Source: Candidatus Latescibacterota bacterium
GTDB lineage: Bacteria > Latescibacterota > UBA2968
Length of the DNA: 64,000 nt
Direction of reading: 5' to 3'
Assembly: GCA_965116885.1 (NCBI GenBank)
Contig: OZ220741.1
Location: 3,904,001 to 3,968,000 of the forward strand
Program-made: the position numbers and the translations under genes
The notes under the pieces: model-generated
Databases searched by the model: none
What the model saw: only the letters and a program-made list of their open reading frames with translations
Told to the model about the DNA's origin: nothing
In this document: positions 1,234-44,407 of the stretch, piece by piece
Layout: the number at the start of each line of letters is the position of its first letter
How positions within the stretch are numbered: the first letter of the stretch is position 1

Positions 1234-1277
1234 ATTTGCAGGATTAGAAAATCGTAGATAAACAAAAAGGGGAGGCA

Positions 1278-2147
1278 ATGTCTAAGAAAGGCTATCGGGT
1301 AGATTGTCACACACACCTCTGGCGCTATCCGGGTGAGTTGACCGATGAATTGGCACGCGAGACTTTTATTATGCGCAATCAAGAGGTGGATCTGGATATT
1401 ACACCCGATATGCACACGGCAGCCGTGGCAGAGGTGGATTGCGCTATCGTGTTCGGGTTGCGGGCACCGCTGACTGGTTTTTTTACTGTTAATGATACGG
1501 TTGCTGATTACGTGAGAGATCATCCGGAAAAGCTGATCGGTTTTGCTGCGATCTGCCCGACTGAGGACAACGCGCTTGAGGAGGTTGAGCGCGCGGTCAA
1601 AGAGCTGGGATTGCGGGGCCTGAAGATGAGTCCGATCTACGGTGGGTGGGACCCATTGGATGCGAATGCGCTGGCTATTTTTGCCAGGGCGGAGGAGTAC
1701 GGATTGCCCATTATGTTCCACCAGGGAGCGACTTTTCCGCGCAGGGCACCGCTGAAGTACGCGAATCCCGTTCTGCTGGAGGATATCGCGCTCCGGTTTC
1801 CAGATCTGAAGATGATAATCGCCCATCTGGGACATCCCTGGGAGGCGGAGACCATTGTCCTGATCCGGAAGCAGCCAAACGTGTTTTCGGATATTTCGGG
1901 GCTGTTCTACCGGCCCTGGCAGTTTTATAACTCGCTGCGGCTGGCGGTTGAGTACGGGGTTGTGGATAAACTGCTCTTTGGAACAGATTATCCTGTGGCT
2001 ACTTTTGAGGAAACAGTGGAAGGGTTGCACCATGTGGTCCGGCTTTCCCAGGAGATGCGGTTGCCTCCGCTTCCAGAAGACCTGCCGGATCAGATTCTGT
2101 ACCGCGATACTCTGGGATTGTTGGGGCTTTCTGATACTGTGACCTGA
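1278..2147 (+). CDS. Amidohydrolase_2 family metal-dependent hydrolase
   Basis: DCHTH, FHQG, IAHLGHPW, LFGTDYP; RBS GGAGG. Confidence 0.9.
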   Translation: MSKKGYRVDCHTHLWRYPGELTDELARETFIMRNQEVDLDITPDMHTAAVAEVDCAIVFGLRAPLTGFFTVNDTVADYVRDHPEKLIGFAAICPTEDNALEEVERAVKELGLRGLKMSPIYGGWDPLDANALAIFARAEEYGLPIMFHQGATFPRRAPLKYANPVLLEDIALRFPDLKMIIAHLGHPWEAETIVLIRKQPNVFSDISGLFYRPWQFYNSLRLAVEYGVVDKLLFGTDYPVATFEETVEGLHHVVRLSQEMRLPPLPEDLPDQILYRDTLGLLGLSDTVT

Positions 2148-2181
2148 CGCTCGCGTTTCAGCGTATTGAAAGGAGATGTTG

Positions 2182-3489
2182 ATGGGAAAGCTGGCATTGA
2201 CGGGGGGACCTGAGGCGGTAAGGCTCGACAGAAGGAAATTCGCGGTTCCCCCTGTGAGTGAGGAGGCGATTGCAGCGGTGGTGGGACTGATGCGTAAGGG
2301 CGAGACTTCCATTTCACCATCGGTTGCAGAGTTCGAACGCGAGTTCGCCGATTACGTCGGCTGTGAATACGGGCTGGCACTTACCAGCGGTACGGCGGCA
2401 CTTCAAACGGCCCTGTTTGCGGTGGGGGTGGAGCCAGGCGATGAGGTTATTGTTCCTTCCTTTACATTTCTTACCACAGCGACGACTGTGCCAGCTATGG
2501 GGGGCGTCACTATTTTTGCCGATGTAGATCGCGATACGATGACTCTGGATCCCGCCGACATAGAGCGGAAGATTACAGAGCGGACCCGTGCGATTGTCGT
2601 TTGCCACGTCTGGGGTAATCCTGCGGATATGGAATCGATTTTGAAACTGGCACGCCCGCGGAGGATCGCCGTGATTGAGGACTGTTCGCACGCCCACGGG
2701 GCGACCTGGCAGGGAAAGAAAGTCGGTTCTGTAGGCGATGTCGGATGTTTCAGTTGCCAGGGGTCCAAGCTAATTGCAGCGGGGGAGGGCGGTGTACTCA
2801 CGACAAACGACCGCGACCTGTACGAGCGGGCTATTGTGCTGGGTCGTCCGGAAAAGCGTGCCGAAATTCGAGAGGATTCATGGATAAAACGCTTTGCCTT
2901 CACGGGGTTGGGTTTCAAATACCGTCCCCACCCGCTGGGCATTGCAATCGCCCGCGAGCAACTTCATCACCTGGATGAGATGAACAAAATCCGAGACCGC
3001 AATGGTGCTGTCCTGGACACCGGGCTGGCAGATGTGGCAGATGTGGTGCCTCAGCGAGTGCTTCCGGGTTGCCGGCGCGTTTACAATAGCCACTGTATGC
3101 GGTATGATCCGGATAGGCTCGGAGGTGTTTCAATCGAGACCTTCCTGCGGGCGCTCTCAGCAGAAGGGGTGAGTATCGGCAGAATGAGATACGGACATTT
3201 GCACGGGAATCCGATTTTTACAGAGGGATTTCCCTATGGTACGAGGGGTGTGACGTTGAGCGCACGGGGACATGATGCATCGGATTTTTCAAATGGTCCG
3301 CTTCCGGTGACAGAACATCTCAGAAAGTATGCTTTTCGTGCGGCTCCCCGGCTCGAAACGGAGTGTCGGGAACTGATCAACCAGTATCTGGATGCCTACC
3401 ACAAGGTGGCATCGGCCGTCGATGAACTCCTAACTTACGAGAGGGAGCACAAATCAGAGGCTCAGGAGAGACACGGAGGTGTGTTATGA
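2182..3489 (+). CDS. DegT/DnrJ/EryC1/StrS PLP-dependent aminotransferase
   Basis: SGTAAL, EDCSHAHGA, SCQGSKLIAAGEGG (PLP Lys); AGGAG at 2171-2175 favours ATG 2182 over 2176. Confidence 0.9.
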   Translation: MGKLALTGGPEAVRLDRRKFAVPPVSEEAIAAVVGLMRKGETSISPSVAEFEREFADYVGCEYGLALTSGTAALQTALFAVGVEPGDEVIVPSFTFLTTATTVPAMGGVTIFADVDRDTMTLDPADIERKITERTRAIVVCHVWGNPADMESILKLARPRRIAVIEDCSHAHGATWQGKKVGSVGDVGCFSCQGSKLIAAGEGGVLTTNDRDLYERAIVLGRPEKRAEIREDSWIKRFAFTGLGFKYRPHPLGIAIAREQLHHLDEMNKIRDRNGAVLDTGLADVADVVPQRVLPGCRRVYNSHCMRYDPDRLGGVSIETFLRALSAEGVSIGRMRYGHLHGNPIFTEGFPYGTRGVTLSARGHDASDFSNGPLPVTEHLRKYAFRAAPRLETECRELINQYLDAYHKVASAVDELLTYEREHKSEAQERHGGVL

Positions 3490-4766
3490 TACCCAAAGAG
3501 ATAACAAATTCCGTTCCGGCGTTGACAGACGAGACATTTGAGGCGTTGTTCGAAGCCTGTCGTCCTCAAAAGGAACGGTGGACAGATATCCCCTGGATCG
3601 GAGGACTGTGGGAGGGGCGACAGAAGGCGGCGCGCGAGGAGAAGCCACTGTTCATCTGGGCGATGAACGGTCATCCTCTGGGGTGTACGTGAAATAACGG
3701 GGTTACGGGCCGTGCGCTCGTTTTTTCAGATCCGCGTGTGATCGAGTTTTTGAATGAATGGTTTATCCCGGTGGCTGTGAACAATACCCGGTTGCAGCGA
3801 CAAGTCGATGATGAAGGCCGGTTTTTGCGCCTGATCTCCTGGCAGGGAAGGTACGGGTATTCTTTTGAGGAAGCACAGGCCAGGTTGGAGGATATCGATC
3901 ACGGGCTGAACCATCAGGGTTTGTATGCTGTGACGACGGAGGGAGAGGTGTTGGGTAGCCGCAACAGGCTGTTTCCGGGAGGCAAGGACTCGGTCCATGG
4001 TGTGGGTAGCGATCCAGACCGGTTTTTGTGGATGTTGAGACGGGCGCTGGAGAACTGGGATAACCGCAAGACCCAGCGCGAGACATTGGAAATCGAAGAT
4101 CTGGCGTATCGAGATCCTACATTTAGCTGGACGGGGTATCCTGAAGATGGATTGGTTTTACACCTGAGCGTTCGGGATCTGCCCCGGGAGGTGGATACGC
4201 GACCTGCGGGAATGAAGCGAGAGGCGCACAATCAGGATTACGTCTGGTTCCGACGGGAAGAAGTGCTGTCTATGGTTCCACTGGATGCGGCTGTAGGCAA
4301 TGTCGTTCCCATGTCCGATGGGCTGGTCAGACGGCTGGTGCGTTATCATCTGGCGGATTATGTTCGAGGGGAAACGTCTTCCTGGCCGTCCGAGGCGATC
4401 CGGGATGCGGCTATAAAGTTGACGGTGATGGAGGATACGCCGGAATGGGTTGATTTAAGGCTTTCCGGATCCGCACAGCTGTTCTCGGAGGGGAGTTGGT
4501 ACGAGGGCGTGTGTCGGGAACGGGGGCTGGATGCATCGCTGTTGGGTTATCTCCGTTTTGATCGGCGGACGGAACAGTTCGTGAGATTCGATGTTGTGGC
4601 GGTGGGATCGCGGTGGGGCGGCACGGACTACAACGTACGACAGGACGATTTGGAGCCTGCACCTATCGGGGTTGCGATGACGATTGCCGGGCGGGAAGCG
4701 AGGGATCGTACTGCGCCGCATGCGTGCCAGAGGCGGGGTGGCCTGGGGTGGTATTTTAATGCGTGA
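3486..4766 (+). CDS. Probable selenoprotein, 426 aa, thioredoxin-like N-terminal domain (SelN-like), Sec at codon 69 (TGA 3690-3692)
   Basis: ORFs 3486-3692 and 3738-4766 share a frame; read-through gives GHPLGCT-U-NNGVTGRALVFSDPRVIEFLNEWFIPVAV, a continuous thioredoxin-fold pattern; no RBS before GTG 3738. Confidence 0.8.
3696..3722 (+). promoter_or_regulatory. Candidate bacterial SECIS hairpin
   Basis: AACGGG(3696-3701) pairs with CTCGTT(3717-3722); upper stem TACG/CGTG, bulged U3703, G-containing loop GGC; starts 3 nt after the UGA; folded by eye. Confidence 0.5.
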
Positions 4767-4808: not shown

Positions 4809-5735
4809 ATGATACGGTGTGAACGGAGAGCGGAACTCGAGATAGAAACACCGCATCTTTGTGCAACTGTGCGGACTGAGGGATACGTGAGCGGGATCAA
4901 AAGCAGGTCGTTTGTAGATAAACGGACGGGCGCGACCGATCTGGGTTCGGGTCTGCACATTATGGACTTCTTGCTCGTACCGGGGTGGGGAGATGCAGAA
5001 CCAAATCGGATCTACGACGGGAATCTACCCAAGCGCGTCGTGGAAGGTCCCCAGATCTGTACGCGGGCACGGCAGTTGGACTATGAGGTCATCCAGAGCG
5101 AAACGTTTCTGGCTGTGCGGCAGTGGTTTACGTTTACGGATGTGGTTGAAGGTTTTCAGGCCGGGTCGCGGTGGGAACAGACACTGCTATTTCTACCGGA
5201 CACGCGGTACGTACTTTCGTGCGAACGGATTTATTGTGTCAACAGCGCGGATTGTCTGTTCTACCGGATCGACATGCCCGGCCACTTGCACCACAAGGGC
5301 GGAGACTCCTTTACACGGATTTACTTGAGCTATCACGGGTATATTGAATCTTCAGAGTTCCTGGCGGATTTCCCTCCTGACGAGGGTTTTCTCTACCAGC
5401 GAAAAGAGGGCGATATTCCCGATCGGATTATCCGGGCATACGAACAACGACAAGAGGATGGCACATCCGTGTGGCTGGCTGGGATGACGCTGGATCCGGC
5501 GGATGTGTACGAGGCATGGTGTCATCAACGGGGTTATGTCTGCTTCATCCAGGAACTGCACGGTCGAAAGGTGGCGGCTGGGGACACGATTGGAGCCGCA
5601 TACGTGGTGGGGTATTTCGATTCGGTGGATGAGATGAATGCGGTTTACGACCAGTATCGGGGGGTGCGCTCAATTGCGATAGATGAGAAGGGATATACAC
5701 TGCTGGACGAAGTTGAGAAAGCCGATGAAACTTAG
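4809..5735 (+). CDS. Hypothetical protein (beta-rich)
   Basis: Long ORF, GGAGA RBS before ATG 4809; no recognised catalytic motif. Confidence 0.75.
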   Translation: MIRCERRAELEIETPHLCATVRTEGYVSGIKSRSFVDKRTGATDLGSGLHIMDFLLVPGWGDAEPNRIYDGNLPKRVVEGPQICTRARQLDYEVIQSETFLAVRQWFTFTDVVEGFQAGSRWEQTLLFLPDTRYVLSCERIYCVNSADCLFYRIDMPGHLHHKGGDSFTRIYLSYHGYIESSEFLADFPPDEGFLYQRKEGDIPDRIIRAYEQRQEDGTSVWLAGMTLDPADVYEAWCHQRGYVCFIQELHGRKVAAGDTIGAAYVVGYFDSVDEMNAVYDQYRGVRSIAIDEKGYTLLDEVEKADET

Positions 5736-5746
5736 AACCCATCGGC

Positions 5747-5842
5747 TCAGCCACTCTCAATAAACTCACCACCTATATCCGTAGCAATCTGCGTCCAGAT
5801 TTCGTCCTTGGAAGGTCCGAAAACAGATCTGAGCATACCCAT
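5747..5842 (-). pseudogene. 31-codon fragment MGMLRSVFGPSKDEIWTQIATDIGGEFIESG, possibly a truncated DUF3137-like N-terminus
   Basis: GGAG RBS plus ATG; FGPSKxEIW resembles N-termini of longer proteins (recalled, unverified). Confidence 0.4.
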
Positions 5843-6107
5843 TTTTTACTCCATGGTTTTGACGCTTGATAATCCTCATAAATCGCGTTCTACTTCAATT
5901 CTTCCTCTATCCAATCCATCCACTTCATAAGCCGCGAAAGGTATCTTGATACCCTCTCGTTTGAAGAGCGTGTCAGGTGGATATACAATTCTCGGGTCTC
6001 ATCGAGAAAGTCAGTCCACTGTGGATATGACGCCTTTAGCACCGGTATTGTGTCAATGCTTTTTTAGATTACAAATATATGCAAATCAAGTTTTCAATAG
6101 GGATGAG

Positions 6108-6136
6108 GGAACGCCCCACCAGAGATACAGGTCTAA
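6108..6136 (+). promoter_or_regulatory. ECF (sigmaE-like) promoter GGAAC-N18-GTCTAA
   Basis: 46 nt upstream of ATG 6183; same-spaced counterpart at 48665-48693 on the minus strand. Confidence 0.6.
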
Positions 6137-6182
6137 TGATTCAGAACCGAGGAGAGTAACCAATCCACCGAATAGATGAAAA

Positions 6183-7751
6183 ATGACCAGAGACTCACAT
6201 AAATCGCCTGTGTCTATTGATCGAAGGGATTTTATTCACCTGGCCGGTCTTGGCGCAATGGGCGCGCTTGTTCTGGGGCTGGATGTTCCTGTTGGCGCAC
6301 AAAAACAACCCAATTTTATCTTTATGGTTTCTGACGATCAGGGGTGGGATGGCCTTTCGGTGCAGATGCACGATGCGATTTTCGGTTCAAAGAGCGATTT
6401 TTACCAGACGCCCAATCTCGAGAAGCTCGCACAGCAGGGCATGCGTTTTTCGGCAGCTTATTCGCCTTCGCCTGTCTGTTCACCCACGCGATGTAGCCTT
6501 CAAACGGGTAAAAGTCCGGCACAGAACCACTGGACAAAGGCGTCCCCTATTCTGACCGCCAGAGATGGCCGTAAACTCATCCCACCAATGCATGGCAGAG
6601 ATCTCTCCAGTGGTGAGATAACCATTGCTGAGATGTTGAAACAGGCCGGTTATACCACAGCACATTATGGCAAATGGCATCTCGGTGGCGGTGGACCAGG
6701 ACGTCACGGGTATGACGTACACGATGGGAATACGGGTAACAGGGATGCGGCTCGTCATGTCGATCCCAATCCTGTAGATATATTCGGTATGTCCCGGCGT
6801 GCCAATGCGTTTATGGAGGAGAATACAGAAGCGGGCAAGCCGTTCTTTATCCAGTTGTCTTACTATGCTCTGCACTATCCCCGGAATGCGCTGGAGAGTA
6901 CGCGGCAGGCATACGAAAATCGACCGAGGGGGCGCGTCCATCGAAATGTCAATCGCGCGGCGATTACTGAAGACCTGGATACGGGGGTGGGTATGATCAT
7001 GGACCAAGTTGAGAAACTCGGTATTGGCGGTCACACGTATCTGATTTACATGTCGGATAATGGGGCTGTTGGAGGCGGTCTGGGTGTGTTGCGCGGGTCG
7101 AAGGGATCACTGTGGGAGGGAGGTATTCGCGTGCCGTTGATTATCCAGGGACCTGGTATAGAGCCAAATACGTTTTGTGATGAACGCGTGGTCGGTGTTG
7201 ATCTGTTTCCCACGCTTTGCGAACTGGGCGGTGTAAGTCAGCCGTTGCCATCGGGTATTGAGGGAGGGAGTATCGCGTCGTTATTATCTGGTGGGTCGGG
7301 TGCGGTTGTGAGACCTCGGGAGGAGCTTGTGTTTCATTTTCCGCATTATCAAAGTGAAGATGATGGACCGCATTCGGCAATTATATTGGGCGATTACAAG
7401 TTGCTCAAGTTTTACGAGACCGATGAGGTGCGGTTGTATGATTTAGCCAATGATATTGGTGAGCAGAATGATTTGTCCAAAGATATGGGAGAAGAGGCGA
7501 TGCGTCTGCGCGAACGTCTCGAACAGTATCTCGATTCCGTTGACGCTCAGATGCCAGTGCCCAATCCCAATTATGGGCCAAGCAAATCAAGTGATTTTAA
7601 TGGCGATGGACAAATCAATTTCCAAGATTTTCTGGAATTTGCCAGAGCTTATGGGTCGGAGGAGACTCGGTTTGATCTGGATAATAGCGGGCGTGTGGAT
7701 TTTGCCGATTTTTTGAGGTTTGTACAAGATTTTGGAAGCGCCGGGAATTAA
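6183..7751 (+). CDS. Tat-exported sulfatase with C-terminal dockerin-like double EF-hand tag
   Basis: DRRDFI twin-Arg signal; SDDQG, CSPTR, GKWHL, SDNG; C-terminal DFNGDGQINFQDF...DLDNSGRVDFADF. Confidence 0.92.
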   Translation: MTRDSHKSPVSIDRRDFIHLAGLGAMGALVLGLDVPVGAQKQPNFIFMVSDDQGWDGLSVQMHDAIFGSKSDFYQTPNLEKLAQQGMRFSAAYSPSPVCSPTRCSLQTGKSPAQNHWTKASPILTARDGRKLIPPMHGRDLSSGEITIAEMLKQAGYTTAHYGKWHLGGGGPGRHGYDVHDGNTGNRDAARHVDPNPVDIFGMSRRANAFMEENTEAGKPFFIQLSYYALHYPRNALESTRQAYENRPRGRVHRNVNRAAITEDLDTGVGMIMDQVEKLGIGGHTYLIYMSDNGAVGGGLGVLRGSKGSLWEGGIRVPLIIQGPGIEPNTFCDERVVGVDLFPTLCELGGVSQPLPSGIEGGSIASLLSGGSGAVVRPREELVFHFPHYQSEDDGPHSAIILGDYKLLKFYETDEVRLYDLANDIGEQNDLSKDMGEEAMRLRERLEQYLDSVDAQMPVPNPNYGPSKSSDFNGDGQINFQDFLEFARAYGSEETRFDLDNSGRVDFADFLRFVQDFGSAGN

Positions 7752-7783
7752 CAAATTCAATTGTTTATACAGGAGTTTATCCC

Positions 7784-9097
7784 ATGAAGATTGTCGGATT
7801 TGCGATTGTCGCATGTTTGTTAGGCGCTTTGGAAGCGAATGCGTGTAGTGCGGATTTGGATAAGGATGGCGAGGTAGGGTTTTCTGACTTTCTAGTTTTG
7901 GCTGCTCAATTCGGTCAAACGTGTCCACCTGAAATGCCGGATACTCTGAGCGCGATATCCGTAGAGGCTGGCTACGGTCGGATTGTGCTTCCGGGTACAC
8001 AGGTGGATCTCAATGCCACACTTACCAATGGTCCGGGTGCCCGTGTTGTGTGGCGGCAAGTGCAAGGGGCGTCGGCGGCGATCAGTTCGCCCAATGCGCT
8101 CCAGACGACGGTTAGCGTTCCTGTCAATGTCAGCGGTGCGGAGACCTTGCTATTTGAAGTGCGTGCCGAGATGGAATCGGGACAACAAGCATCGGATACG
8201 GTTTGGATCGAGGTGTACGTACCCGAACAGAATCCAGCCGACCTGACGCTTGTGGCAGATTTTTCGCCGAAAGTTGGTTGGGAGTGTAACCAGGACCCCG
8301 TAGAGGTTCCAGAGGTTCAGACCCGCGTTCTGGAAAATACCATCGAATATACGTCCAACGGCATTCCCGCCCATGCGACAGGGTTGTTTCCCAATCGGGG
8401 AAATCCGAACATGATTTGGTCAGTGCCGCAAACCTGGCGCATTCCCCGCTATCCCGAAAAGACGGACACGCCTACTGAAATGGCTGTATTTGGCATCACG
8501 CTCGAGGGCATCAAACTCGAACGCGATACTGCGGAGAGTTATCGCAACCAGCGGCAGTGGAATTACGAGGCGCTGACCCCGGGTATGGCGCGTCGATTGA
8601 GCGGCAATGCGCGGTTTGAATGGCTGGGTACAGATTGCAATAACGCACACGTTCAGCCGACGGGTATTTACCACTACCACGGCGTGCCGCATAGCTTGAT
8701 AAATGAACTCGCCGGTGGGATGGAGAGCGAGGAAATGGTATTGGTCGGATATGCTGCCGACGGTTTTCCGATCTATGTCGCCAGCGGGCCCAATGCTCCT
8801 GAGGGAAGTTGGGAATTGCGCTCGGGGACGCGAGAAAGTGGACCCGGGGGAGAATACGATGGCACGTTTCGGGAAGATTGGCAATTTGTCGAGGGATCGG
8901 GTGACCTCGACCAGTGCAATGGGCGATTTGGGATGACGCCCGAGTTCCCGGAAGGAATCTACCATTACTATCTTACCGAAGACTACCCGTACATGCCCCG
9001 CTGTGTATGGGGGACGCCAGATCCTTCGTTCAGGCAACGTCGGGCTGGTGGTCCTGGCGGCCCAGGTTTTAGAAGGCGTCCACCGAGCCGTTATTGA
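7784..9097 (+). CDS. Secreted YHYH protein with one dockerin-like repeat and a PKD/Ig-like domain
   Basis: Signal peptide; DLDKDGEVGFSDF; WRQVQG Ig-like segment; AHVQPTGIYHYHG, GYAADGFPIY, GDLDQCNG, YHYY. Confidence 0.88.
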   Translation: MKIVGFAIVACLLGALEANACSADLDKDGEVGFSDFLVLAAQFGQTCPPEMPDTLSAISVEAGYGRIVLPGTQVDLNATLTNGPGARVVWRQVQGASAAISSPNALQTTVSVPVNVSGAETLLFEVRAEMESGQQASDTVWIEVYVPEQNPADLTLVADFSPKVGWECNQDPVEVPEVQTRVLENTIEYTSNGIPAHATGLFPNRGNPNMIWSVPQTWRIPRYPEKTDTPTEMAVFGITLEGIKLERDTAESYRNQRQWNYEALTPGMARRLSGNARFEWLGTDCNNAHVQPTGIYHYHGVPHSLINELAGGMESEEMVLVGYAADGFPIYVASGPNAPEGSWELRSGTRESGPGGEYDGTFREDWQFVEGSGDLDQCNGRFGMTPEFPEGIYHYYLTEDYPYMPRCVWGTPDPSFRQRRAGGPGGPGFRRRPPSRY

Positions 9098-9145
9098 TCT
9101 GGTATTCATAGATTGAAAATATCCGTGCGGAGGACGACAGACATC

Positions 9146-10303
9146 ATGTTCTTAAAATTATTAAAACCAAAATGGGTGCTGGGTGTGATCTTCGCTTTAT
9201 TTTGTATTTTTAGCCCAATCACTTTGAAAGCGTCACTGACCGATTTTGATGGCAATGGCAAAGTCGATTTTGCCGATTTTCTACTTTTTGTAGCTGTATT
9301 TGGGCAATCGGCTGCTGGGCAAAATGCGATTTTCGATCTGGACACAAGTGGCAAAGTCGATTTTGGAGATTTTTTAATTTTTGCCAGTGCTTTTGGGCAA
9401 CCCGCCTCTGATCCTGTTCGCGGTGTTAGCACTCAGGGTTTTGCAACGCAAACAATTTCCAATCTGCTCGATTGTCCCGGGGGGCGTATAAGTCGTGTGG
9501 GGACCATTACATCTGACGATGGCAATGTGTGGATTATGCCCGCCGAGACGCTATACACAACCGCAAGACATGCATCGGATATGTATAACCAATGCACAGG
9601 TGTTTTCACTTCCAGTAGCAGTGCTCTCAATTTGTCGGCTGTGCCAGTTGTAGAGATCGATAGAGATGGTGAGACGATTACGGGATATATCTTTGCTGAC
9701 AATTACTTTGAGTTGTATGTGAACGGTATCTTGATCGCAGTTGATTCAGTTCCGTTCACACCGTTTAATTCGAGCATGGTTCGGTTTAAGGTTAAGCGAC
9801 CATTTACGATTGCAATGAAGTTGGTCGATTGGGAAGAGAATCTGGGGCTTGGCACAGAAGCTAATCGCAATTTTTTACACCATCCTGGAGATGGTGGTTT
9901 GGTAGCGAGTTTTCACGATGCCAATGGAAATACGGTTGCAATTACAAATGGTCAATGGAAAGCGCAGACTTTCTATATTGCACCCATTAGAGATTTGAGC
10001 TGTATTGTTGAGAAGGAGACCGAGCATTTGTCCGGCGACTGTGACACGCGGGGTACAAATGATGGGAGTCAATTTTACGCAATGCACTATCCCGTCCCAT
10101 CTAACTGGTCTGAAAGCGACTTTGATGATTCGGCCTGGCCACGGGCATATACTTATACAAATGCGACAGTTGGTGTGAACAACAAACCCGCATATACTAA
10201 TTTTACGGATCTATTTGATGATCCTGAGCACGATGCACAATTTATATGGTCATCGAATCTCATTTTGGACAATGAAGTGATTGTGCGATATACCGTAAAG
10301 TAG
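9146..10303 (+). CDS. Secreted hypothetical protein with N-terminal dockerin-like tag
   Basis: Signal peptide; DFDGNGKVDFADF...DLDTSGKVDFGDF; ADNYFELYVNG and FDDSAWP segments suggest a beta-sandwich. Confidence 0.8.
   Translation: MFLKLLKPKWVLGVIFALFCIFSPITLKASLTDFDGNGKVDFADFLLFVAVFGQSAAGQNAIFDLDTSGKVDFGDFLIFASAFGQPASDPVRGVSTQGFATQTISNLLDCPGGRISRVGTITSDDGNVWIMPAETLYTTARHASDMYNQCTGVFTSSSSALNLSAVPVVEIDRDGETITGYIFADNYFELYVNGILIAVDSVPFTPFNSSMVRFKVKRPFTIAMKLVDWEENLGLGTEANRNFLHHPGDGGLVASFHDANGNTVAITNGQWKAQTFYIAPIRDLSCIVEKETEHLSGDCDTRGTNDGSQFYAMHYPVPSNWSESDFDDSAWPRAYTYTNATVGVNNKPAYTNFTDLFDDPEHDAQFIWSSNLILDNEVIVRYTVK
9171..9282 (+). repeat. 112-bp signal-peptide plus tag module, repeated at 14568-14679
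   Basis: Ungapped manual alignment, 12 mismatches in 112 nt (~89% identity). Confidence 0.9.
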
Positions 10304-10338
10304 TGTTATGCTAAGTCGATATTTGATTGGGAATTGTG

Positions 10339-10938
10339 ATGGCAGAACGAAATCTCTATAAAGAAAATCAAGACGAAGACTTTGATTTTAAGATACTTGT
10401 GGATCAATACCAGGAGCGTGTATTGAATTTGTGCTATCGGTTTGTCAACCATCGGGAAGATGCTGAAGATGTGGCGCAGGATGTATTTGTGGAAATCTAT
10501 CGCTCAATTGGAAATTTTCGGAACGATGCGAAGTTAAGTACCTGGATTCACCGTATTGCCGTTAATAAGTCGCTGGATTTTGTGCGAAAGAAAAATCGCA
10601 AAAAGCGCTTTGGACAGGTCAAATATTTCCTTGGGCTTGAGGAAGTGGAGAATCAGTTGCGCGCTTCTCCAGACTCTCAACCCGAGGTTGTGCTGGAGAC
10701 AAAGGAATGTGCTGCGATTTTGAGACAGGCTGTGGCGTCTTTGTCAAAAAAACAACGGACTGCTATAATTTTAAATAAGTTTGAGGGATTCAGCTATGCA
10801 GAAGTAGCCGATGTTATGGAGACAACTGTTTCGGCTGTTGATTCCCTCATTCAACGAGGCCTGAAGAATTTGCGAAAGAAACTATACAGATATTATGAGG
10901 AAGATTTTAAAAATAAAAAAATGCGAAGGGATCTATAA
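10339..10938 (+). CDS. ECF-type RNA polymerase sigma-70 factor
   Basis: DAEDVAQDVF, STWIHRIAVNKSLD (region 2); EGFSYAEVADVM (region 4). Confidence 0.93.
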   Translation: MAERNLYKENQDEDFDFKILVDQYQERVLNLCYRFVNHREDAEDVAQDVFVEIYRSIGNFRNDAKLSTWIHRIAVNKSLDFVRKKNRKKRFGQVKYFLGLEEVENQLRASPDSQPEVVLETKECAAILRQAVASLSKKQRTAIILNKFEGFSYAEVADVMETTVSAVDSLIQRGLKNLRKKLYRYYEEDFKNKKMRRDL

Positions 10939-10952
10939 AAAATCACGTCTAA
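10924..10952 (+). promoter_or_regulatory. ECF-type promoter CGAAGG-N16-CGTCTAA
   Basis: Overlaps the end of the sigma gene; same spacing as the motif at 11889-11917. Confidence 0.6.
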
Positions 10953-10975
10953 CTATAGATGAGGAAAGAAAGTCT

Positions 10976-11287
10976 ATGAGCCGGGAACGAAAAATAGAAG
11001 AAGCAGTTGAGCAAACGCTTCAGAGCTTTGAGTCTGCCGACAGACTGCAACCCTCGCCCTTTTTTTATACAAGGCTTCGGGCAAGGATTGAGGGGCTGCA
11101 TCGAGGTGCGACTCAACGGTATCGATTCGCATTTGGTGTGTTGAGATTCGTTTCTCTCTCGCTACTACTTATTTGGAATATTGTGACGGTGACCTACCTT
11201 ATTGGAAGCGATCAAACAGAAGCCTATGATCGAAGTGAGATGATTAGTGTATTTGCTGAACTTTATGTGCTTGAGGGAGACGAATAA
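10976..11287 (+). CDS. Putative anti-sigma factor (single transmembrane helix)
   Basis: Directly follows the ECF gene; PSPFFYTRLRARI motif then a hydrophobic helix. Confidence 0.75.
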   Translation: MSRERKIEEAVEQTLQSFESADRLQPSPFFYTRLRARIEGLHRGATQRYRFAFGVLRFVSLSLLLIWNIVTVTYLIGSDQTEAYDRSEMISVFAELYVLEGDE

Positions 11288-11960: not shown

Positions 11961-14555
11961 ATGATGAGGCAACAATTGAGGATGTTCGGATTGGTTTTTT
12001 GCATGATGAGTGTGTTGTGTACCAGTTATGCAGAAGGGCATATGCTCTACAGTGATGAAAGTGATGTGACAGATTTCAATGACGACGGAAAAACGGACTT
12101 CATTGATTTTGTCATGTTCGCGGCTGCATTTGGTTCGCAACAGATACAATTCGATTTAAATCAGAATGGTCTGGTGGATTTTCCCGACTTTCTTGTGTTT
12201 ATATCTGCATTTGGACAGCCCGGGTCTGGATCTTCTGGTGGCACGGATGGCGATGCCCCTGTGAGCGCACAAGCATTCCAGCATTTTGCGGATCGGCTAA
12301 ATATTCGGTGGGATGATGATTTTTTATATATCGAGTCCGACGCTTTTCCCGATCACCGCATGATGGTGGGGATTACAGCTTGGAATCAGCAGGTGCCTTT
12401 GCCGCAGCCTTATCAGGGCGATAATGCATGGCAGATTCCACTGAAACCCGCGGTTGCCGATGTGCCAGTTTATGCAAGCCAGACGCTGTTTCGGGGGGCT
12501 ATTGGTCTGGCTATTAACGGCGTGCCCATTTTTAATCCCATCAAACAGAATGGCCGCACCGACACGTATTTGGCTGGGGAGTTAGATGAATTTGGGGGGC
12601 ATGCCGGTCGTGCGGACGACTATCACTACCATATCGCGCCGTTGTTTCTTACAGAAAAAGTGGGCGATGCCGTACCTATTGCGTATGCCCTGGATGGGTA
12701 CCCGATGTATGGACTCAATGAACCCGATGGTACTCCGGCGAAAGATCTGGACGATTTGAACGGACATTTTGATGCAAATGGAAATTATCACTATCACAGC
12801 ACGCTGGATTATCCCTATGTCAATGGCGGATTTAAGGGTGTTATTGAACTTTTCAGAGGAGAAGAAGTCGCAAATCAACCCCGTACAAGGCCCGTTCGCC
12901 CTTCTGGGACGGGTATGAGGGCGAATATCACAGATTTTGTGAAAGGAACAGATGGCTGGTATCGGCTTACGTATGAGGCAAACGGTGGAATACACGCGAT
13001 TGCCTATTTTCTCAGACCAGATGGGGATTATGATTTTCAATTTATAGATGCCAGTGGCAATATCACGCGACAGACTTACCGCTCCAATGGGAGTGTTGAG
13101 GTAGAAGGCGATGCGGGAACGTCAGGCCAGAGCGGTGGGTCTGATGATTCAGGCCCCCAAACAGTAACCGATCCACCCGATACGGATTCCGATTCTTTGT
13201 TTGTTGCGTCCGAGTTGTTGGGACGACCAACCGATAGGTCCATAACTGTCAATGTGGTTCCATCAGCAGACCTGGAAATTTATCTGGAATACGGAACAGA
13301 ATCAGGTGTTTACACAAAGCAGACATCCGTGGTGGTGGGGACACGAAATACACCGATTGAAATTGCGATGGATGGGTTGCTTTCTAACACGCGGTATTAT
13401 TATCGAACGCGCTACCGGCGCGCAGGAGAAACAGAGTTCAAAAGGCGGGGCGAATATACGTTTCACACATATCGTTCACCGGGTACAACATTCACTTTTT
13501 CAATTCAGGCCTGCGCACATTTAGATGGTCGATCCAGTCTGGAACTCTATCATCGCTCGCTGGAAAATGTCGCAGCATATCAGTCCGATTTTCTCATTGA
13601 TCTCGGTGATACATTTATGTGCAACAAACACTCAGAACCACTTACGGCGACTGTAAGACCCGCACCCGATTACGCAACCGTTGAGCGTCGGTATTTGTAC
13701 GAGCGTGGAAATTTTGGAAAGATTACGCATTCTATTCCGCTGTTTCTCGTCAATGGCAACCACGATGGGGAAGAGGGGTGGTCCTTGAATGGTACGCCGA
13801 ACAATGTGGCTGTTTGGGCTACATTGGCGCGTAAAAAATATTATACGAATCCCGTACCAGATGTGTTCTACTCCGGAGGTTCCGATGAAGAGCCGTTTGT
13901 TGGCGTGAGAGAGAGTTATTATTCGTGGTCGTGGGGAGATGCGCTATTTGTTGTGATTGACCCTTATTGGTACACGACGACAAAGCCCAAACGCGGCGGC
14001 GTATCGGATAACTGGCGCTGGACCCTTGGCGAAAAGCAATATCAGTGGCTTCGACAAGTGCTGGAGGCGAGTGATGCGACCTTTAAATTTATCTTTTCAC
14101 ATCACCTGGTGGGGGGTATTCATACAGGAGAAGGACGCGGCGGTATTGAGATGGCTCCGTATTACGAATGGGGTGGTAAGAACAGAGACGACAGTTGGGG
14201 GTTTGACACAAAACGCGCGGGATGGGGCAAGCCTATTCATCAACTGATGGTGGAGAACAATGTGTCGGCTTTTTTTCACGGTCATGACCATGTGTTTGTG
14301 AAGCAGGAGTTAGATGGGGTGGTGTATCAAGTGTTGCCACAACCGAGTAACACCAATTATCGGAATGGTGACAAAATAGCTGCTGAAGGGGGATATTTTA
14401 GTGGTACTGTCCTGGGAAATTCTGGGCATTTGCGTGTAACTGTTTCTCCTGATGATGTTGTGGTAGAATACATCAGAGCTTATCTGCCAGGAGATGAAGG
14501 TGCTGGACGGGCAAATGGCGAGGTGAGCTATTCTTATCGGATAGAGAAAAAATGA
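11961..14555 (+). CDS. Secreted dockerin-like + YHYH + purple-acid-phosphatase-like metallophosphoesterase fusion
   Basis: Signal peptide; double DF tag; GHAGRADDYHYH, YALDGYP, NYHYH; FN3-like segment ending NTRYYYR; DLGDTF, GNHD, FSHH, GHDH. Confidence 0.88.
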   Translation: MMRQQLRMFGLVFCMMSVLCTSYAEGHMLYSDESDVTDFNDDGKTDFIDFVMFAAAFGSQQIQFDLNQNGLVDFPDFLVFISAFGQPGSGSSGGTDGDAPVSAQAFQHFADRLNIRWDDDFLYIESDAFPDHRMMVGITAWNQQVPLPQPYQGDNAWQIPLKPAVADVPVYASQTLFRGAIGLAINGVPIFNPIKQNGRTDTYLAGELDEFGGHAGRADDYHYHIAPLFLTEKVGDAVPIAYALDGYPMYGLNEPDGTPAKDLDDLNGHFDANGNYHYHSTLDYPYVNGGFKGVIELFRGEEVANQPRTRPVRPSGTGMRANITDFVKGTDGWYRLTYEANGGIHAIAYFLRPDGDYDFQFIDASGNITRQTYRSNGSVEVEGDAGTSGQSGGSDDSGPQTVTDPPDTDSDSLFVASELLGRPTDRSITVNVVPSADLEIYLEYGTESGVYTKQTSVVVGTRNTPIEIAMDGLLSNTRYYYRTRYRRAGETEFKRRGEYTFHTYRSPGTTFTFSIQACAHLDGRSSLELYHRSLENVAAYQSDFLIDLGDTFMCNKHSEPLTATVRPAPDYATVERRYLYERGNFGKITHSIPLFLVNGNHDGEEGWSLNGTPNNVAVWATLARKKYYTNPVPDVFYSGGSDEEPFVGVRESYYSWSWGDALFVVIDPYWYTTTKPKRGGVSDNWRWTLGEKQYQWLRQVLEASDATFKFIFSHHLVGGIHTGEGRGGIEMAPYYEWGGKNRDDSWGFDTKRAGWGKPIHQLMVENNVSAFFHGHDHVFVKQELDGVVYQVLPQPSNTNYRNGDKIAAEGGYFSGTVLGNSGHLRVTVSPDDVVVEYIRAYLPGDEGAGRANGEVSYSYRIEKK

Positions 14556-15913
14556 CCAGATACACACAATGGGCTTTGGGTGCGGTCTTCGCTTTATTTT
14601 GCATTTTTAGCCCAATTACTTTGAAAGCGTCACAGCCTGATTTTGATGGAAATGGCAAGGTCGATTTTGCCGATTTTCTCGCCTTTGCTGGTGCTTTTGG
14701 CACCGATCAAGTCAAATTTGATCTCAATCAAAATGGGCAGGTAGATTTTCCTGACTTTCTAATATTTGTTAGAGCATATGGTGCGAATGGTGACACATCC
14801 TTACCCGAGCCGTCTGCATTTTACAAGCTACCAGATGATTGGCAGGTTGTACCTATAGAACAACAAAATTGTGCAAAAGAGGATCTTGTTGGTGTTGATC
14901 ATGTTTATGTTGAAACGGCATCAAAATTGTTGGTGTGGCTTACCGGCACGGTTGAAGATGCACATTATGAACCCATTGGTGAGGTGGCAAATTATTTTGG
15001 TTTTGCAGCACTCAGGAACGAGATTCGGGAACGCGATGGGAACAATGCAGATACCTCTTTTCGAGGTGCAGTCTATAAGGAAGTCCTGGAGCTTTTGGAT
15101 GATACTCAACGGTCGTTGTTATATGAATTATTGGCCGAACATCGAACGGCAATCAACGGATTTTTGGAAGACCGTGTTTTGTTGGTCGATGAATTGTGGC
15201 GTTTAAAAAATAACGTTACAATGGACTATGTTCGTGTGATGAACTTGATACAATCAATTGGGGAATACGAAGGTACCATTACGGTCATAACGGCCCAATA
15301 CTATGCAAAATTACTACCTCTTTTGAGCGCTGAACAGGTGCAATACTTAGAAAATATTCGTCGTGGCGTTGTCACCGTAGATCAGATGCAAAATACCTCA
15401 TTGCCATATGCTGCAGAAGCAAAAACTCAATTTAACGCACTTAGCCGTGATGATGCTACATTGATGCAGGAAGTGTCGAGCAAGTTCGTTGCCTGGGCAA
15501 CGGGTGATTTATATGACGCGCTCTTTTTGCCAAGAGGTAAAATTGGCAACTATTTTGGGTTTTCAAGCTTTCGGTATGTGGATCGAACATCAGTGAGTCG
15601 TGGGGGGGCTGCGGATTTGATCGACCAGGTATTAACCCCAGATCAACAAGCCATTCTTTGTGGTCTCTCGACTAATGTTGTGGGTTATACCCAGGATTAT
15701 GTTAATGGCCGAGCGACTTTGATCACGAAATTGGATGCTCTCAAAAAAGATCCTACGCTGCCAGTAGATCATCTTGTAACGGACTATGCTGACCTGGCTG
15801 GCCAGGGTGAGGGCCGCAGGGTAGTGGTAGAAGCATTAACATATCATCTCATAGAGTCTATGATGAGTGCAGAACAAATCCAAAGTCTTAAAGCACTTAG
15901 AGTCACAAATTAA
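14552..15913 (+). CDS. Secreted dockerin-like protein with internally duplicated helical domain (LTxxQ-like motifs)
   Basis: Signal plus tag; SKLLVWLTG...NYFGF repeated as SKFVAWATG...NYFGF; LDDTQ, LSAEQ, LTPDQ, MSAEQ. Confidence 0.8.
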   Translation: MTRYTQWALGAVFALFCIFSPITLKASQPDFDGNGKVDFADFLAFAGAFGTDQVKFDLNQNGQVDFPDFLIFVRAYGANGDTSLPEPSAFYKLPDDWQVVPIEQQNCAKEDLVGVDHVYVETASKLLVWLTGTVEDAHYEPIGEVANYFGFAALRNEIRERDGNNADTSFRGAVYKEVLELLDDTQRSLLYELLAEHRTAINGFLEDRVLLVDELWRLKNNVTMDYVRVMNLIQSIGEYEGTITVITAQYYAKLLPLLSAEQVQYLENIRRGVVTVDQMQNTSLPYAAEAKTQFNALSRDDATLMQEVSSKFVAWATGDLYDALFLPRGKIGNYFGFSSFRYVDRTSVSRGGAADLIDQVLTPDQQAILCGLSTNVVGYTQDYVNGRATLITKLDALKKDPTLPVDHLVTDYADLAGQGEGRRVVVEALTYHLIESMMSAEQIQSLKALRVTN

Positions 15914-15952
15914 ACGATTCAGCTCAAATTTTTCTTTTATAGATTGGCAAAA

Positions 15953-16325
15953 GAACAACAAATCCGCATATACGAATTTTACAGATCTATTTGGTGCTCC
16001 AGAACGCGATGCACTCGTTTTTCATTTTCCACATTACGATATGGATCTCGCAGGGCCTGCATCGGCAATCATGTTGGGTGATTACAAGCTGATCAAGTTT
16101 TATGAGACCAATAAATTGCATCTGTTTGATCTGAGTAAGGATATAGGTGAGGAGAATGATCTGGCAGGTCGTAAACCCGAGGTTGTTGCGAAATTACATG
16201 GCCGACTGAATGAATATTTAGCATCCGTTGATGCCCAAATGCCCCGGCCCAATCCAAATTACGATCCGAGTAGTCCGGTCGGTGGGCGAAGGGAGAGAAA
16301 TAATCGGAGGCGAAGAACGCAGTAA
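15953..16325 (+). pseudogene. Chimeric relic: 62-bp copy of 10177-10238 fused in frame to a sulfatase C-terminus
   Basis: 54/62 nt identity to the 9146-10303 gene, then LVFHFPHY...DAQMPRPNPNY paralogous to the 6183 sulfatase; no credible start. Confidence 0.8.
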
Positions 16326-17240: not shown

Positions 17241-18698
17241 CTTACAGCCCGTAAGACCCACTCGCAGAGAGCTTTAGCGTTGGGAAGCAGACGCGAGTTA
17301 GCGAGCGTTATTTTGCAAGGGCTTCCGAATTTATGGTGCGGTGCTTTAGCATGGTGGCACATTGCTCAAGGCAATGTGGGCGGTGGAGCGGTGTACAAGT
17401 GCGCCAGCACTTCATCAACCAAAATCATCCGTTCACTGACTACATAAAAATTGCATAAATTACTGTTTTTATGTATATTTATACTATGGAATACTTAACA
17501 TACAAATACAAAATGTATAGTCTCTGTGACCGCAATAAGTATCTGCACTATGAGATAGACGCTTTTGCTGAGGTGTATAATCATTTCATTGCCTTGCACA
17601 AGCGATACTATCGGCGTTTTGGCAAATATCCGAGTAAGTTCACAATGATTAACCATTTGGCAAAGCTGAAAAGAACAACACGCTTTGCACATTGGCGTTT
17701 GTTGCCGAGCCAGGCATTGCAAAATGTGGTTGAGCGTATAGACCTTGGCTATCAGAAATTCTTTGCCAGAGACAACAAGCGTCCGCCCACATTCAGGTCT
17801 CGCTTTCGGTATCAGTCCTATACGCTGAAGCAAGCAGGATACAAATTCCTCGAGCGTAACAAGGTGCGTATTGGCAAGCGTATATTCAGATACCATAAGA
17901 GCAGAAAGTTCGATGTAGAGCGTATCAAGACGGTCACAATCAAACGTGACCGTGTAGGCGATTTGTGGCTATGTGTTGTTGCAAAGGCTGAGGGTATCAA
18001 GTCATTCATGATCAAGAACGGTAAAACCGCAGGTTTTGATTTTGGCTTGCAAACATATCTAACAGCCTCAGACAGCACAAGGACACAATCGCCATTGTTC
18101 TTTAATCGTAATTCAAGGAAAGTCAAAAAGGCTAATCGCAATCTTTCTCGTAAAAAGAAAGGTAGCAACAATCGTCACAGGGCAAGCGTAAATCATGCCA
18201 GAGTGCATAGGCGCGTTGCTAATCAGCGCAGAGACTATCACTGGCGACTTGCCCATCAACTGTGTAAAGACTATGACGTTATGTTCTTTGAGACTTTGAA
18301 CATTGACGCCATGAAAGCGTTGTGGGGCAGAAAGATTAGCGATTTGGGCTTTTCAAACTTCTTGTCCATCCTCAAGTATGTGGCAAAAAAGACTGGCAAA
18401 GTTGTCAAACAAATCGACAAATGGCTACCCACGTCAAAGACCTGCTCTGCTTGTGGCACAGTCAAAGAGGACCTCGAATTGCGAGAAAGAACATTCCATT
18501 GTTGCGAATGTGGTCTTGAGATAGACAGAGACCTCAACGCGGCGATAAACATTCACAGGTGGGGGCGTCCACCTATGGCGGAGGTAGCGTAAGACTTGCC
18601 GAACTTCGGGGAAGCAAGCAACTACTGTTGATCCCACAATCCCTGCTGAAGCAACAAGGTTTTAGAATCCCAATGCTTTAGATTTGAGAGTACGTCAA
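17241..18698 (+). mobile_element. IS200/IS605-family element, tnpB-only (IS1341-like), 1458 bp
   Basis: Left-end hairpin AAGA-CCCA...GCTTTAGCGTTGGG; right end GAAT-CCCAATGCTTTAG...GAGTACGTCAA; TTAT directly 5'; no target duplication. Confidence 0.85.
17486..18592 (+). CDS. tnpB: RNA-guided endonuclease TnpB
   Basis: RuvC I GFDFG, RuvC II FFETL, Zn finger CSAC/CCEC, RuvC III DRDLNAAINI; alternative start 17471. Confidence 0.95.
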   Translation: MEYLTYKYKMYSLCDRNKYLHYEIDAFAEVYNHFIALHKRYYRRFGKYPSKFTMINHLAKLKRTTRFAHWRLLPSQALQNVVERIDLGYQKFFARDNKRPPTFRSRFRYQSYTLKQAGYKFLERNKVRIGKRIFRYHKSRKFDVERIKTVTIKRDRVGDLWLCVVAKAEGIKSFMIKNGKTAGFDFGLQTYLTASDSTRTQSPLFFNRNSRKVKKANRNLSRKKKGSNNRHRASVNHARVHRRVANQRRDYHWRLAHQLCKDYDVMFFETLNIDAMKALWGRKISDLGFSNFLSILKYVAKKTGKVVKQIDKWLPTSKTCSACGTVKEDLELRERTFHCCECGLEIDRDLNAAINIHRWGRPPMAEVA

Positions 18699-28224: not shown

Positions 28225-28421
28225 TATCTTCTCCTTAAAAATTATCTGTCAGTGCGATATAGTGATAAGATGCAATTTAGTGCAGAAATATATGTAAATC
28301 AAGTTTGCAGAGACATTGCCGATTATTTGTTCTGAGCATTCTCCTTGACACGCCCTCTCGAAGATCGTAGATAAGACCGATAGATCGAATGTCGGCAAAA
28401 GCCCATACGACAGGAGGAATT

Positions 28422-34591: not shown

Positions 34592-35392
34592 ATGAATGAA
34601 AAAACGAATCTACATTGGTCTTTCAATCACGATAGAGTAGAGCAGGGGCAGTCTCCAGATTTCGCGCAGCAGTTTCATTCCCTGGTAAAGGGGACGTTGG
34701 AAGCGATAGCCTCCGGAGATCACGGAGGCGAAGTCACCCGCTATACGATTCTCCCCAATTTCAGGCGCGGCTATAAAGGCCCGGCAGACGGCGATGACCT
34801 GTCCGTGGGCGAGGTGGTGATCCGCCAGACGGTCGAGGATGAGAATCGTCTGAACTATTCTGTTGTGTACAGAAACGCCGCGAGCGGAGAACTGATGGAT
34901 ATGCAATTTACATCCGATAGGGATGCATTTCGCACGTTGACCGGTACATGGTCTGTGCACGTAGAGAACTGCGCTGGAGACGGTTACAAGGAATTTTCCT
35001 GTGATGGGCGTCTGGAAGAGAACGGCTCTGTTTTCCTTACGACTAATGGACTGGATTTGCAGGCGGGTTCAGCTGATCTATCCGTACCGCTAACCTGCAA
35101 CTGGACGCTGTTCGACGTGATTCCCGCGCTTGCAGACGGCTTGCGAGAATCTGGTGAGGCACAGAGGCTGACGATCCTGGAGGATCTTGAAAAAGTCCGA
35201 AACAATGGGCAAGTTCGTTTTCTCGAGTCGTATGATTTGCAGTTGGACAGCGATTCGGTTGCACTTGATGGATACGCCCTCATTGCAGAAGGGATGACGC
35301 CTTCTTATTGGTGGCTGGATGCGCGTGGTAGGGTGCTTATCGCAACCACTTTGTATCAAACCCTGATTCTTACAGGAGGCGAAAATGCCTGA
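34592..35392 (+). CDS. Hypothetical protein
   Basis: GGAGG RBS; overlaps the next sulfatase gene; no motif recognised. Confidence 0.7.
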   Translation: MNEKTNLHWSFNHDRVEQGQSPDFAQQFHSLVKGTLEAIASGDHGGEVTRYTILPNFRRGYKGPADGDDLSVGEVVIRQTVEDENRLNYSVVYRNAASGELMDMQFTSDRDAFRTLTGTWSVHVENCAGDGYKEFSCDGRLEENGSVFLTTNGLDLQAGSADLSVPLTCNWTLFDVIPALADGLRESGEAQRLTILEDLEKVRNNGQVRFLESYDLQLDSDSVALDGYALIAEGMTPSYWWLDARGRVLIATTLYQTLILTGGENA

Positions 35393-36839: not shown

Positions 36840-36840
36840 T

Positions 36841-36870
36841 CCGCAGATAGACGCAGATAGACGCAGATGG
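36841..36870 (+). repeat. 10-bp tandem repeat, 3 copies (ACGCAGATAG)
   Basis: CCGCAGATAG ACGCAGATAG ACGCAGATGG. Confidence 0.85.
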
Positions 36871-36976
36871 GGAGGCGTGTCCGTATCCGGGATCGATTCA
36901 CAAATAAAGTGCGATTCCAAAAGGAGCAATCCCCATATTTTGCACAACCACAGATGCAAAAAGAAAGGTTTAGCAG

Positions 36977-38269: not shown

Positions 38270-38285
38270 TGGAAAGGAGTAGAGA

Positions 38286-44400: not shown

Positions 44401-44407
44401 GTCGTTC

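Follow-up and report, generated by a model that had tools for sequence, protein, structure and literature searches.

A widespread family of probable bacterial selenoproteins with a thioredoxin-fold C-x-U site, represented by a split gene in Candidatus Latescibacterota, and its possible relation to selenoprotein N

We analysed a 64,000-nucleotide (nt) stretch of the genome of a Candidatus Latescibacterota bacterium (contig OZ220741.1, positions 3,904,001 to 3,968,000; the whole stretch is hereafter called the window, and positions are counted from its first letter). The gene at 3486..4766, which annotation would divide into two open reading frames (ORFs), very probably encodes a single selenoprotein of 426 residues in which the UGA codon at 3690..3692 is decoded as selenocysteine (Sec, U). 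Conservation of this codon across relatives, coding-type variation on both of its sides, a covarying hairpin immediately downstream and the position of U69 in a predicted thioredoxin fold carry this reading. The family is widespread and appears to be undescribed, and its homology to human selenoprotein N (SelN) is a question on which the evidence stands close to even.

One open frame across an in-frame UGA

The ORFs listed for this region form an in-frame pair, comprising a 68-amino-acid (aa) ORF at 3486..3692, which ends in GHPLGCT followed by TGA, and one of 342 aa that starts with GTG at 3738 and extends to 4766. A first-pass annotation, made from the sequence of the window, had joined the two into a 426-aa product on the grounds that the shorter ORF continues in frame into the longer one, and that the latter has no ribosome-binding site. 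Both observations hold. Translated with TGA as U, 3486..4766 gives 426 residues in a single open frame to 4763, with TGA occurring only at 3690..3692 (U69) and 4764..4766, and with neither TAA nor TAG, and no purine-rich Shine-Dalgarno sequence is present in the 18 nt ahead of GTG 3738. A Shine-Dalgarno-like GGAGG (3475..3479) does sit 6 nt 5' of ATG 3486, and this ATG overlaps, as ATGA, the TGA stop (3487..3489) of the upstream ORF at 2176..3489, a DegT-type aminotransferase gene (Pfam DegT_DnrJ_EryC1, E 2.3e-83). The spacing from U69 to the conserved F80 is 11 residues, as had also been noted. The features of the gene are as follows, with the evidence for each in brackets.

3475..3479, + strand: GGAGG, Shine-Dalgarno-like (read from the sequence)
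3486..3689, + strand: codons 1-68 of the putative selenoprotein gene, callable alone as the 68-aa ORF (invariance of W37, G62 and P64; third-position variation)
3537..4070, + strand: predicted thioredoxin-fold domain, residues ~18-195 (AlphaFold2 model, Foldseek, hidden Markov model alignments)
3684..3686, + strand: TGT codon of Cys67, two residues ahead of U, giving C-x-U (column at least 90% Cys)
3690..3692, + strand: in-frame UGA, putative U69 (aligned codon TGA in 54 of 56 gene copies)
3693..4763, + strand: codons 70-426; the 342-aa ORF from GTG 3738 is the C-terminal 80% (open frame)
3705..3721, + strand: SECIS-like hairpin, with arms ACGGGC (3705..3710) and GCUCGU (3716..3721) and loop CGUGC (3711..3715) (covariation)
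4152..4763, + strand: C-terminal beta-rich domain, residues ~223-426 (domain model, conservation)
4764..4766, + strand: terminal stop TGA (mixed TGA, TAA and TAG terminal stops in homologs)

Conservation of the TGA codon across relatives

Most relatives listed from protein databases are truncated in a similar way. A word-indexed search with the fused protein, in which 8000 candidates were scored, gave 219 matches at E ≤ 0.001, and of the 120 matches listed, 118 were proteins of 246-356 residues that cover only 54-83% of the query. The 22 short homologs placed in an alignment (A1) all begin 3' of the TGA, at varying start codons. Only P0048 (90%) and P0050 (93%) among the listed homologs cover most of the query, and both run through the site with W, the flanks being kept. 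An exhaustive search of 1.84 billion representatives (50% identity) recovered 1745 relatives at E ≤ 0.001; the family extends over several phyla.

At the nucleotide level, a genome scan recovered 59 loci, whose record titles name Latescibacterota, Gemmatimonadota, Chloroflexota, Armatimonadota, Planctomycetota and one deltaproteobacterium. The N-terminal part was missing in L012, L045, L053 and L057, leaving 55 alignable loci and, with the second tandem copy in L036, 56 gene copies. The codon aligned with that of U69 is TGA in 54 of these, TGC (Cys) in L059 and GAC (Asp) in gene 1 of L036. All 54 copies with a stop at this junction have TGA there, never TAA or TAG, whereas the terminal stops of the same family are mixed, and 50 of the 54 continue with 324-357 open codons beyond it.

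Both flanks of the codon are conserved. On its 5' side, the 39 sequences of a full-length alignment all share W37, G62 and P64, and many columns downstream are likewise invariant. Between the window gene and its 11 closest relatives, variable columns number 14, 14 and 31 at the three codon positions before the TGA, and 87, 54 and 183 after it; this is coding-type variation on either side, and both flanks therefore look coding in one frame. In 14 N-terminally complete database homologs, in which the residue at the U site was read by eye, the position is occupied as follows.

Cys, 6 of 14: P0129, P0143, P0198, P0209, P0250, P0245
Ala, 2 of 14: P0127, P0140
Arg, 2 of 14: P0130, P0264
Gly, 1 of 14: P0131
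Asp, 1 of 14: P0124
Asn, 1 of 14: P0158
Ser, 1 of 14: P0159

The pairing of TGA across phyla with Cys in L059 and in six database homologs is the exchange expected of Sec and Cys, and supports the assignment of the family as putative selenoproteins. Features of the kind assembled here are those by which new bacterial selenoproteins are called according to published work (PMC12013277). The idea that annotation had cut one selenoprotein gene in two is thus borne out by the codon tabulation, the conservation on both sides, the covariation described below and the partial coverage of nearly all listed homologs. The first-pass annotation had also named the signs that would speak against it. Of these, mixed TAA and TAG stops at the site were not seen and loss of the downstream frame was confined to a minority of copies, but Trp and Arg do each occur twice among the database homologs.

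Two further observations concern gene structure in the family. In L012, which is among the closest relatives, only residues 199-426 were matched (5001..5684), directly 3' of a DegT gene, and the thioredoxin domain seems to have been deleted. In a divergent subfamily resembling P0245, many proteins of 280-300 residues cover just 74-80% of the 369-residue Cys form, which suggests that this subfamily, too, has members split at a putative Sec-encoding TGA.

A SECIS-like hairpin downstream of the UGA

A short hairpin, comparable with a selenocysteine insertion sequence (SECIS), can form just 3' of the UGA in every TGA locus. That of the window spans 17 nt (3705..3721) and begins 12 nt past the UGA. 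Hairpin alignments left out L054 and L056, which carry indels beside the TGA, as well as the Cys locus L059. In the alignment of the window clade (A4; 27 sequences, 22 distinct), stem columns 21-27 and 33-39 correspond to 3705..3721 of the window and the loop reads CGUGC or CGUGA; 93.5% of cells are paired, with changes on both sides at four of the seven pairs (28 cells). The observed covariation score was reached by none of 500 shuffles, and sliding the 3' partners cut pairing to 21-67%. In the clade of Planctomycetota and Armatimonadota (26 sequences), the stem, formed by CCAGAC and GUCUGG, is shifted by 4 nt in the 3' direction, with 90.4% pairing.

The bacterial SECIS of the Escherichia coli fdhF type has a minimal element of 17 nt, 11 nt after the UGA. 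The hairpin described here resembles it as a short coding-region structure just 3' of the UGA with GU in the apical loop, but differs in that its sequence is unrelated, the window version has no bulged U and the stem of the second clade is displaced by the 4 nt noted above.

Thioredoxin fold and C-x-U active site

An AlphaFold2 model built from the 39-sequence alignment was confident (predicted local distance difference test, pLDDT, 90.6; predicted template modelling score, pTM, 0.89) and comprised two domains. Within the thioredoxin domain (residues ~18-195), the loop NGHPLGCTU comes after strand 55-60, and U69 stands directly ahead of helix 70-77, such that the strand encoded 5' of the TGA and the helix encoded 3' of it are modelled as parts of one thioredoxin fold. 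A Foldseek search of the Protein Data Bank (PDB) with the whole model gave no match at E ≤ 0.001. The best was 3f9u_A (probability 1.00, TMt 0.61, E 6.4e-3), followed by 3ira (0.97), AGR2 9i3u_B (0.96), the DUF255 protein 7tkv_A (0.91) and the UAS domain of UBXD7, 2dlx (0.85). Profile-to-PDB hidden Markov model (HMM) alignments with 3ira and 3f9u, all below threshold (E 0.062 to 1.1), pair U with the first CxxC Cys and Gly72 with the second, and also bring the V-W-S-D-P-x-V stretch into register; a stretch of V-[WF]-[ST]-D-P-x-V after the active site is common to the family and 3f9u. The model and alignments support a placement of U69 at the N-terminal end of helix 1, in the position that the attacking Cys takes in CxxC proteins, with Gly at the +3 resolving position. 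The earlier assignment of U to the attacking-Cys position of a Thioredoxin_7/YyaL-type fold is supported by the Foldseek probabilities of 0.85-1.0 and the HMM alignments, all of which have E > 0.001.

Cys67, two residues ahead of U69, gives the site the C-x-U motif that had been pointed out as unusual. In a 31-sequence alignment of the thioredoxin domain (A8) its column is at least 90% Cys, with S in L015, R in L052, T in L059 and A in gene 2 of L036 as the exceptions. The family shares its fold, and U on the first CxxC Cys, with Thioredoxin_7, DsbD-gamma-like, DUF255 (Thioredox_DsbH), AGR2 and UAS proteins, but has C-x-U...G instead of CxxC, and is set apart from Thioredoxin_7-type proteins by the long conserved loop WAMNGHPLGCTUNNG and by its fused C-terminal domain.

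Sequence-based searches placed the protein in no existing family. A search of PDB sequences with the single protein found only two unrelated weak matches, and searches with the full-length profile (A6) and the thioredoxin-domain profile (A8) found only sub-threshold thioredoxin-fold matches. No Pfam family matched the window protein at E ≤ 1, and Thioredoxin_7 (PF13899) was matched by three of the 39 family members, the best of them at E 0.019, short of its gathering threshold. The sole NCBIfam model with a signal was NF041383 (VPGUxxT type 2; residues 35-102, 15.8 bits against a cut-off of 275, E 0.0081). This is likewise a bacterial thioredoxin-like selenoprotein family and the signal surrounds the Sec site, but its motif is VPGUxxT where that of the window protein is GCTUNNG.

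Evidence against Sec decoding and alternative explanations

Several observations weigh against decoding of the UGA as Sec. The frame is broken in four of the 54 TGA copies (L038, L044, L054, L056), and among the predicted database homologs, read at the protein level, the site holds W in P0048 and P0050 and R in P0130 and P0264. The hairpin of the Planctomycetota and Armatimonadota clade shows no compensatory change in its 26 sequences, nine of which mispair at one position. This lack of change can be attributed to the 3' arm, which encodes an invariant Val-Trp; the Arg codon of the 5' arm is the rare AGA in 13 of the 26, compared with 33 of the 868 Arg codons elsewhere in these genes, and this enrichment in the stem argues for selection on RNA. 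The 81 nt around the window UGA fold no better than shuffled sequences (z = -0.08; 82 of 200 shuffles as good), and the same 36-nt stretch folds at -13.2 kcal/mol in the Cys locus L059 against a mean of -13.5 for 53 TGA loci. Folding energy is thus uninformative, and the case for a SECIS rests on hairpin position and covariation; the L059 stretch forms no hairpin at the register of the TGA loci. A scan of the whole window against Rfam returned no family at gathering score. Finally, the 64-kb window contains no tRNA, and no sel gene among its 53 ORFs; neither is to be expected within 64 kb. In favour of Sec decoding, one of the 59 loci, L028 of Armatimonadota, has a tRNA-Sec (anticodon TCA) at 1250..1340, which precedes its family gene (4950..6191) by 3.6 kb and scored 79.1 bits against Rfam RF01852, for which the gathering score is 47.

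From sequence alone, insertion of Sec looks the same as any other read-through of the UGA. A near-cognate tRNA could insert Trp, Cys or Arg, with the hairpin acting as a stimulator of read-through and not as a SECIS bound by SelB, and the four predicted homologs with W or R would fit such a scheme. We nevertheless regard it as improbable, given that the site is that of the catalytic Cys of a thioredoxin fold and that Cys is the commonest residue there after TGA is set aside, forming the usual Sec/Cys pair; given the tRNA-Sec near the gene in L028; and given that retention of TGA across at least five phyla offers no evident benefit over a sense codon for Trp or Arg. Still harder to credit is the arrangement of current annotation, in which a 68-residue peptide ends at the TGA and a separate protein of ~340 residues starts downstream. 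Gene callers do yield that split, most listed homologs cover only the downstream part, those in A1 start after the TGA, and a GTG is present at 3738. Two independent genes, however, would not explain a junction stop that is TGA in all 54 copies while terminal stops vary, nor the differing places of the downstream start codons among homologs, nor the missing Shine-Dalgarno sequence ahead of 3738. Homologs with Cys, Ala, Gly, Ser, Asn or Asp at the site are contiguous, and the predicted thioredoxin fold takes residues from either side of the TGA.

The least probable explanation, which we consider very remote, is that the TGA reflects a nonsense mutation, a pseudogene or a sequencing error, or that the organism translates TGA as sense everywhere (genetic code 4 or 25). 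The four related copies with broken frames would agree with decay, and the two metagenome proteins with W at the site are what a table-4 reading would give. Against this, the TGA is seen in 54 independent assemblies with purifying selection on both sides, and TGA terminates 24 of the 53 long ORFs in the window, including this gene itself, and is therefore not a sense codon in this host. Decoding of the UGA as Sec consequently remains by far the best-supported reading of the gene at 3486..4766.

L028 also carries a phosphoglycerate-mutase-like ORF and an EPSP synthase gene near its tRNA-Sec.

Proposed mechanism

Under Sec decoding, translation would start at ATG 3486, served by the GGAGG 6 nt upstream and coupled to the preceding gene through the ATGA overlap. 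At UGA 3690..3692, the hairpin at 3705..3721 would recruit SelB with Sec-tRNA(Sec), Sec would be inserted and translation would proceed to TGA 4764. In the folded protein, the selenol could attack a disulfide, sulfenate or peroxide of a substrate and be recycled through a selenenylsulfide between Cys67 and Sec69, with the ever-attached beta-rich domain of 200 residues possibly supplying substrate binding.

The likely site of action differs between clades. N-termini were compared by a crude measure of hydrophobicity (maximum 10-residue Kyte-Doolittle mean, alignment A6), for which start codons were chosen by us and are uncertain. None of 13 window-clade sequences has a hydrophobic N-terminal segment (the window value is 0.43) and the proteins of this clade, lacking a signal peptide, are taken as cytoplasmic, whereas 14 of 17 TGA sequences of the Planctomycetota and Armatimonadota clade do have such a segment and, with mostly hydrophobic N-termini, are taken as exported.

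The C-terminal domain and fusions to kinases

The prediction of a large uncharacterised C-terminal domain was upheld. Residues ~223-426, about 200 in all, were modelled alone with a pLDDT of 93.8 as long antiparallel strands with few helices, and contain the motifs YPEDGLVL, HLxDxVRGE and GTRWGGTxYNxRxDD, which are invariant or nearly so. Foldseek with this domain alone found 0 PDB matches at E ≤ 0.001, and the best (probability 0.35) was not credible, leaving the domain with no solved relative by this search; its nearest clusters in the ESM Atlas were bacterial hypothetical proteins only.

Several homologs, mostly without Sec, form the C-terminal part of Ser/Thr kinases. Kinase rows obtained with a P0245-like profile (A7) may lack the module, as that profile held kinase columns. 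L036 has two tandem genes of ~1540-1560 residues each, with Pkinase, Kelch repeats and the two-domain module. Gene 1, whose 3' end lies at ~4860..6203, has Asp at the Sec site, and gene 2 (6408..11084) has an in-frame TGA at codon 1216 together with the hairpin of the second clade; judged by this sequence, its product would be a Sec-containing receptor kinase. Use of the module by some lineages, Planctomycetota among them, as the extracytoplasmic end of Ser/Thr kinases points to a role in redox sensing.

Possible relation to selenoprotein N

The first-pass annotation had proposed a bacterial selenoprotein related to SelN (SELENON/SEPN1), and the two parts of that proposal fared differently. 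The selenoprotein part is upheld by the evidence above. The link to SelN was not established: it has one language-model cluster match in its favour, and SCUG, EF-hand and membrane anchor are absent. That match came from the Cys homolog P0245, whose closest cluster, out of 7.7 million in the ESM Atlas, was ‘Selenoprotein N’, with 196 of 256 features shared and a score of 0.91, in a look-up that brings four to ten of every 100 shuffled proteins to 0.9. This cluster, with 55 members of which 98% are Eukaryota, ranked narrowly ahead of two of the family's bacterial clusters. As the first-pass annotation had arrived independently at the same name from a motif of SelN, we treat the link as a real lead. 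Other searches returned no SelN. The thioredoxin-domain profile, run against longer proteins, gave 110 matches, all of them family members except one Thioredoxin_7 protein (E 3), and the P0245-like profile A7, polluted by kinase columns, returned kinases; both are weak evidence. No SelN match was found in the PDB by sequence, profile or Foldseek.

SelN is a protein of ~556-590 residues. Like SelN, the window protein would carry a single catalytic Sec in a predicted thioredoxin-type domain, with a Cys close ahead of U. The Sec of SelN (458/462) is described as lying in an SCUG motif (PMC12839072), within a predicted thioredoxin domain (PMC7474598, PMC12839072), in a protein that also has a membrane anchor and an EF-hand (PMC12839072, PMC7474598). 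SCUG places Cys at -1 and Gly at +1, whereas C-T-U-N-N-G of the family places them at -2 and +3, and SCUG does not occur here. The EF-hand and N-terminal membrane anchor are likewise absent in the window protein (Pfam at E ≤ 1; hydrophobicity 0.43), and where SelN has its Sec near the C-terminus, 357 residues, including a second domain, follow U here. Taken together, we hold homology of the family to SelN to be near even. The fuller proposal, that the family is the prokaryotic counterpart of human SelN with a homologous Sec-bearing thioredoxin-type domain and is widespread in five phyla, has in our judgement as much to be said for it as against it.

Were the link true, a soluble protein with a confident model could offer the first tractable structural and biochemical model for the catalytic domain encoded by a human myopathy gene, no three-dimensional structure of SEPN1 having been solved as of 2020 according to PMC7474598. 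It would also parallel the recent bacterial SelO finding for SelO, and provide a simple system for a poorly understood disease protein.

Novelty and significance

Bacterial thioredoxin-fold selenoproteins are a known kind to which families are still being added. Table 1 of a review of May 2026 (PMC13188914) covers 119 families of prokaryotic selenoproteins, almost every one of them assigned an identifier from Pfam, NCBIfam, TIGRFAM, CDD or PANTHER, and no entry in that table describes the architecture found here. No Pfam or NCBIfam model fits the window protein, and every source-given name among the listed family matches is ‘hypothetical protein’. Literature searches, covering articles apart from their supplements, gave nothing relevant on a SelN-like bacterial protein, on Latescibacteria and selenocysteine, or on the text of the active-site motif. 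The family therefore appears to be undescribed. Recognising it would put right gene calls in their thousands and extend the thioredoxin repertoire by a C-x-U active site, and would also connect redox chemistry with a beta-rich domain that is so far uncharacterised.

Genomic context and other features of the window

Neighbouring genes vary among the 11 closest loci, with DegT upstream only in L003 and L012 and an unknown 317-aa gene downstream in five. Among 95 flanking ORFs at 25 diverse loci, we found no recurrent partner and no sel gene; with its neighbourhood unconserved, the context of the gene offers no functional lead. When the window was scanned for further junctions of this kind, with TGA inside a frame, only consecutive genes in the same frame or unconvincing cases came up.

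Elsewhere in the window, at 6183..7751, 28389..29807, 35385..40530, 44318..45772, 51908..53581 and 56418..59527, lie genes of a further kind: at least 10 ORFs match Pfam Sulfatase, and others match glycoside hydrolase families 2, 3 and 116 and PhyH dioxygenases. Very rich in sulfatases, the window looks like a polysaccharide-degradation region. The ORF at 14552..15913 (453 aa, with an EF-hand match) overlaps that at 15867..16325 (152 aa, matching only SGSH_C, a sulfatase C-terminal domain), and the pair resembles one sulfatase-type gene in two frames, a split that might stem from a frameshift or from misassembly. An IS605 OrfB/TnpB-type gene (OrfB_IS605 and a Cas12f1-like TNB domain) lies at 17471..18592, after a DUF488 gene, and on the reverse strand, at 46636..48603, a multicopper oxidase carries a fused Redoxin domain at its C-terminal end, which is itself of the thioredoxin fold.

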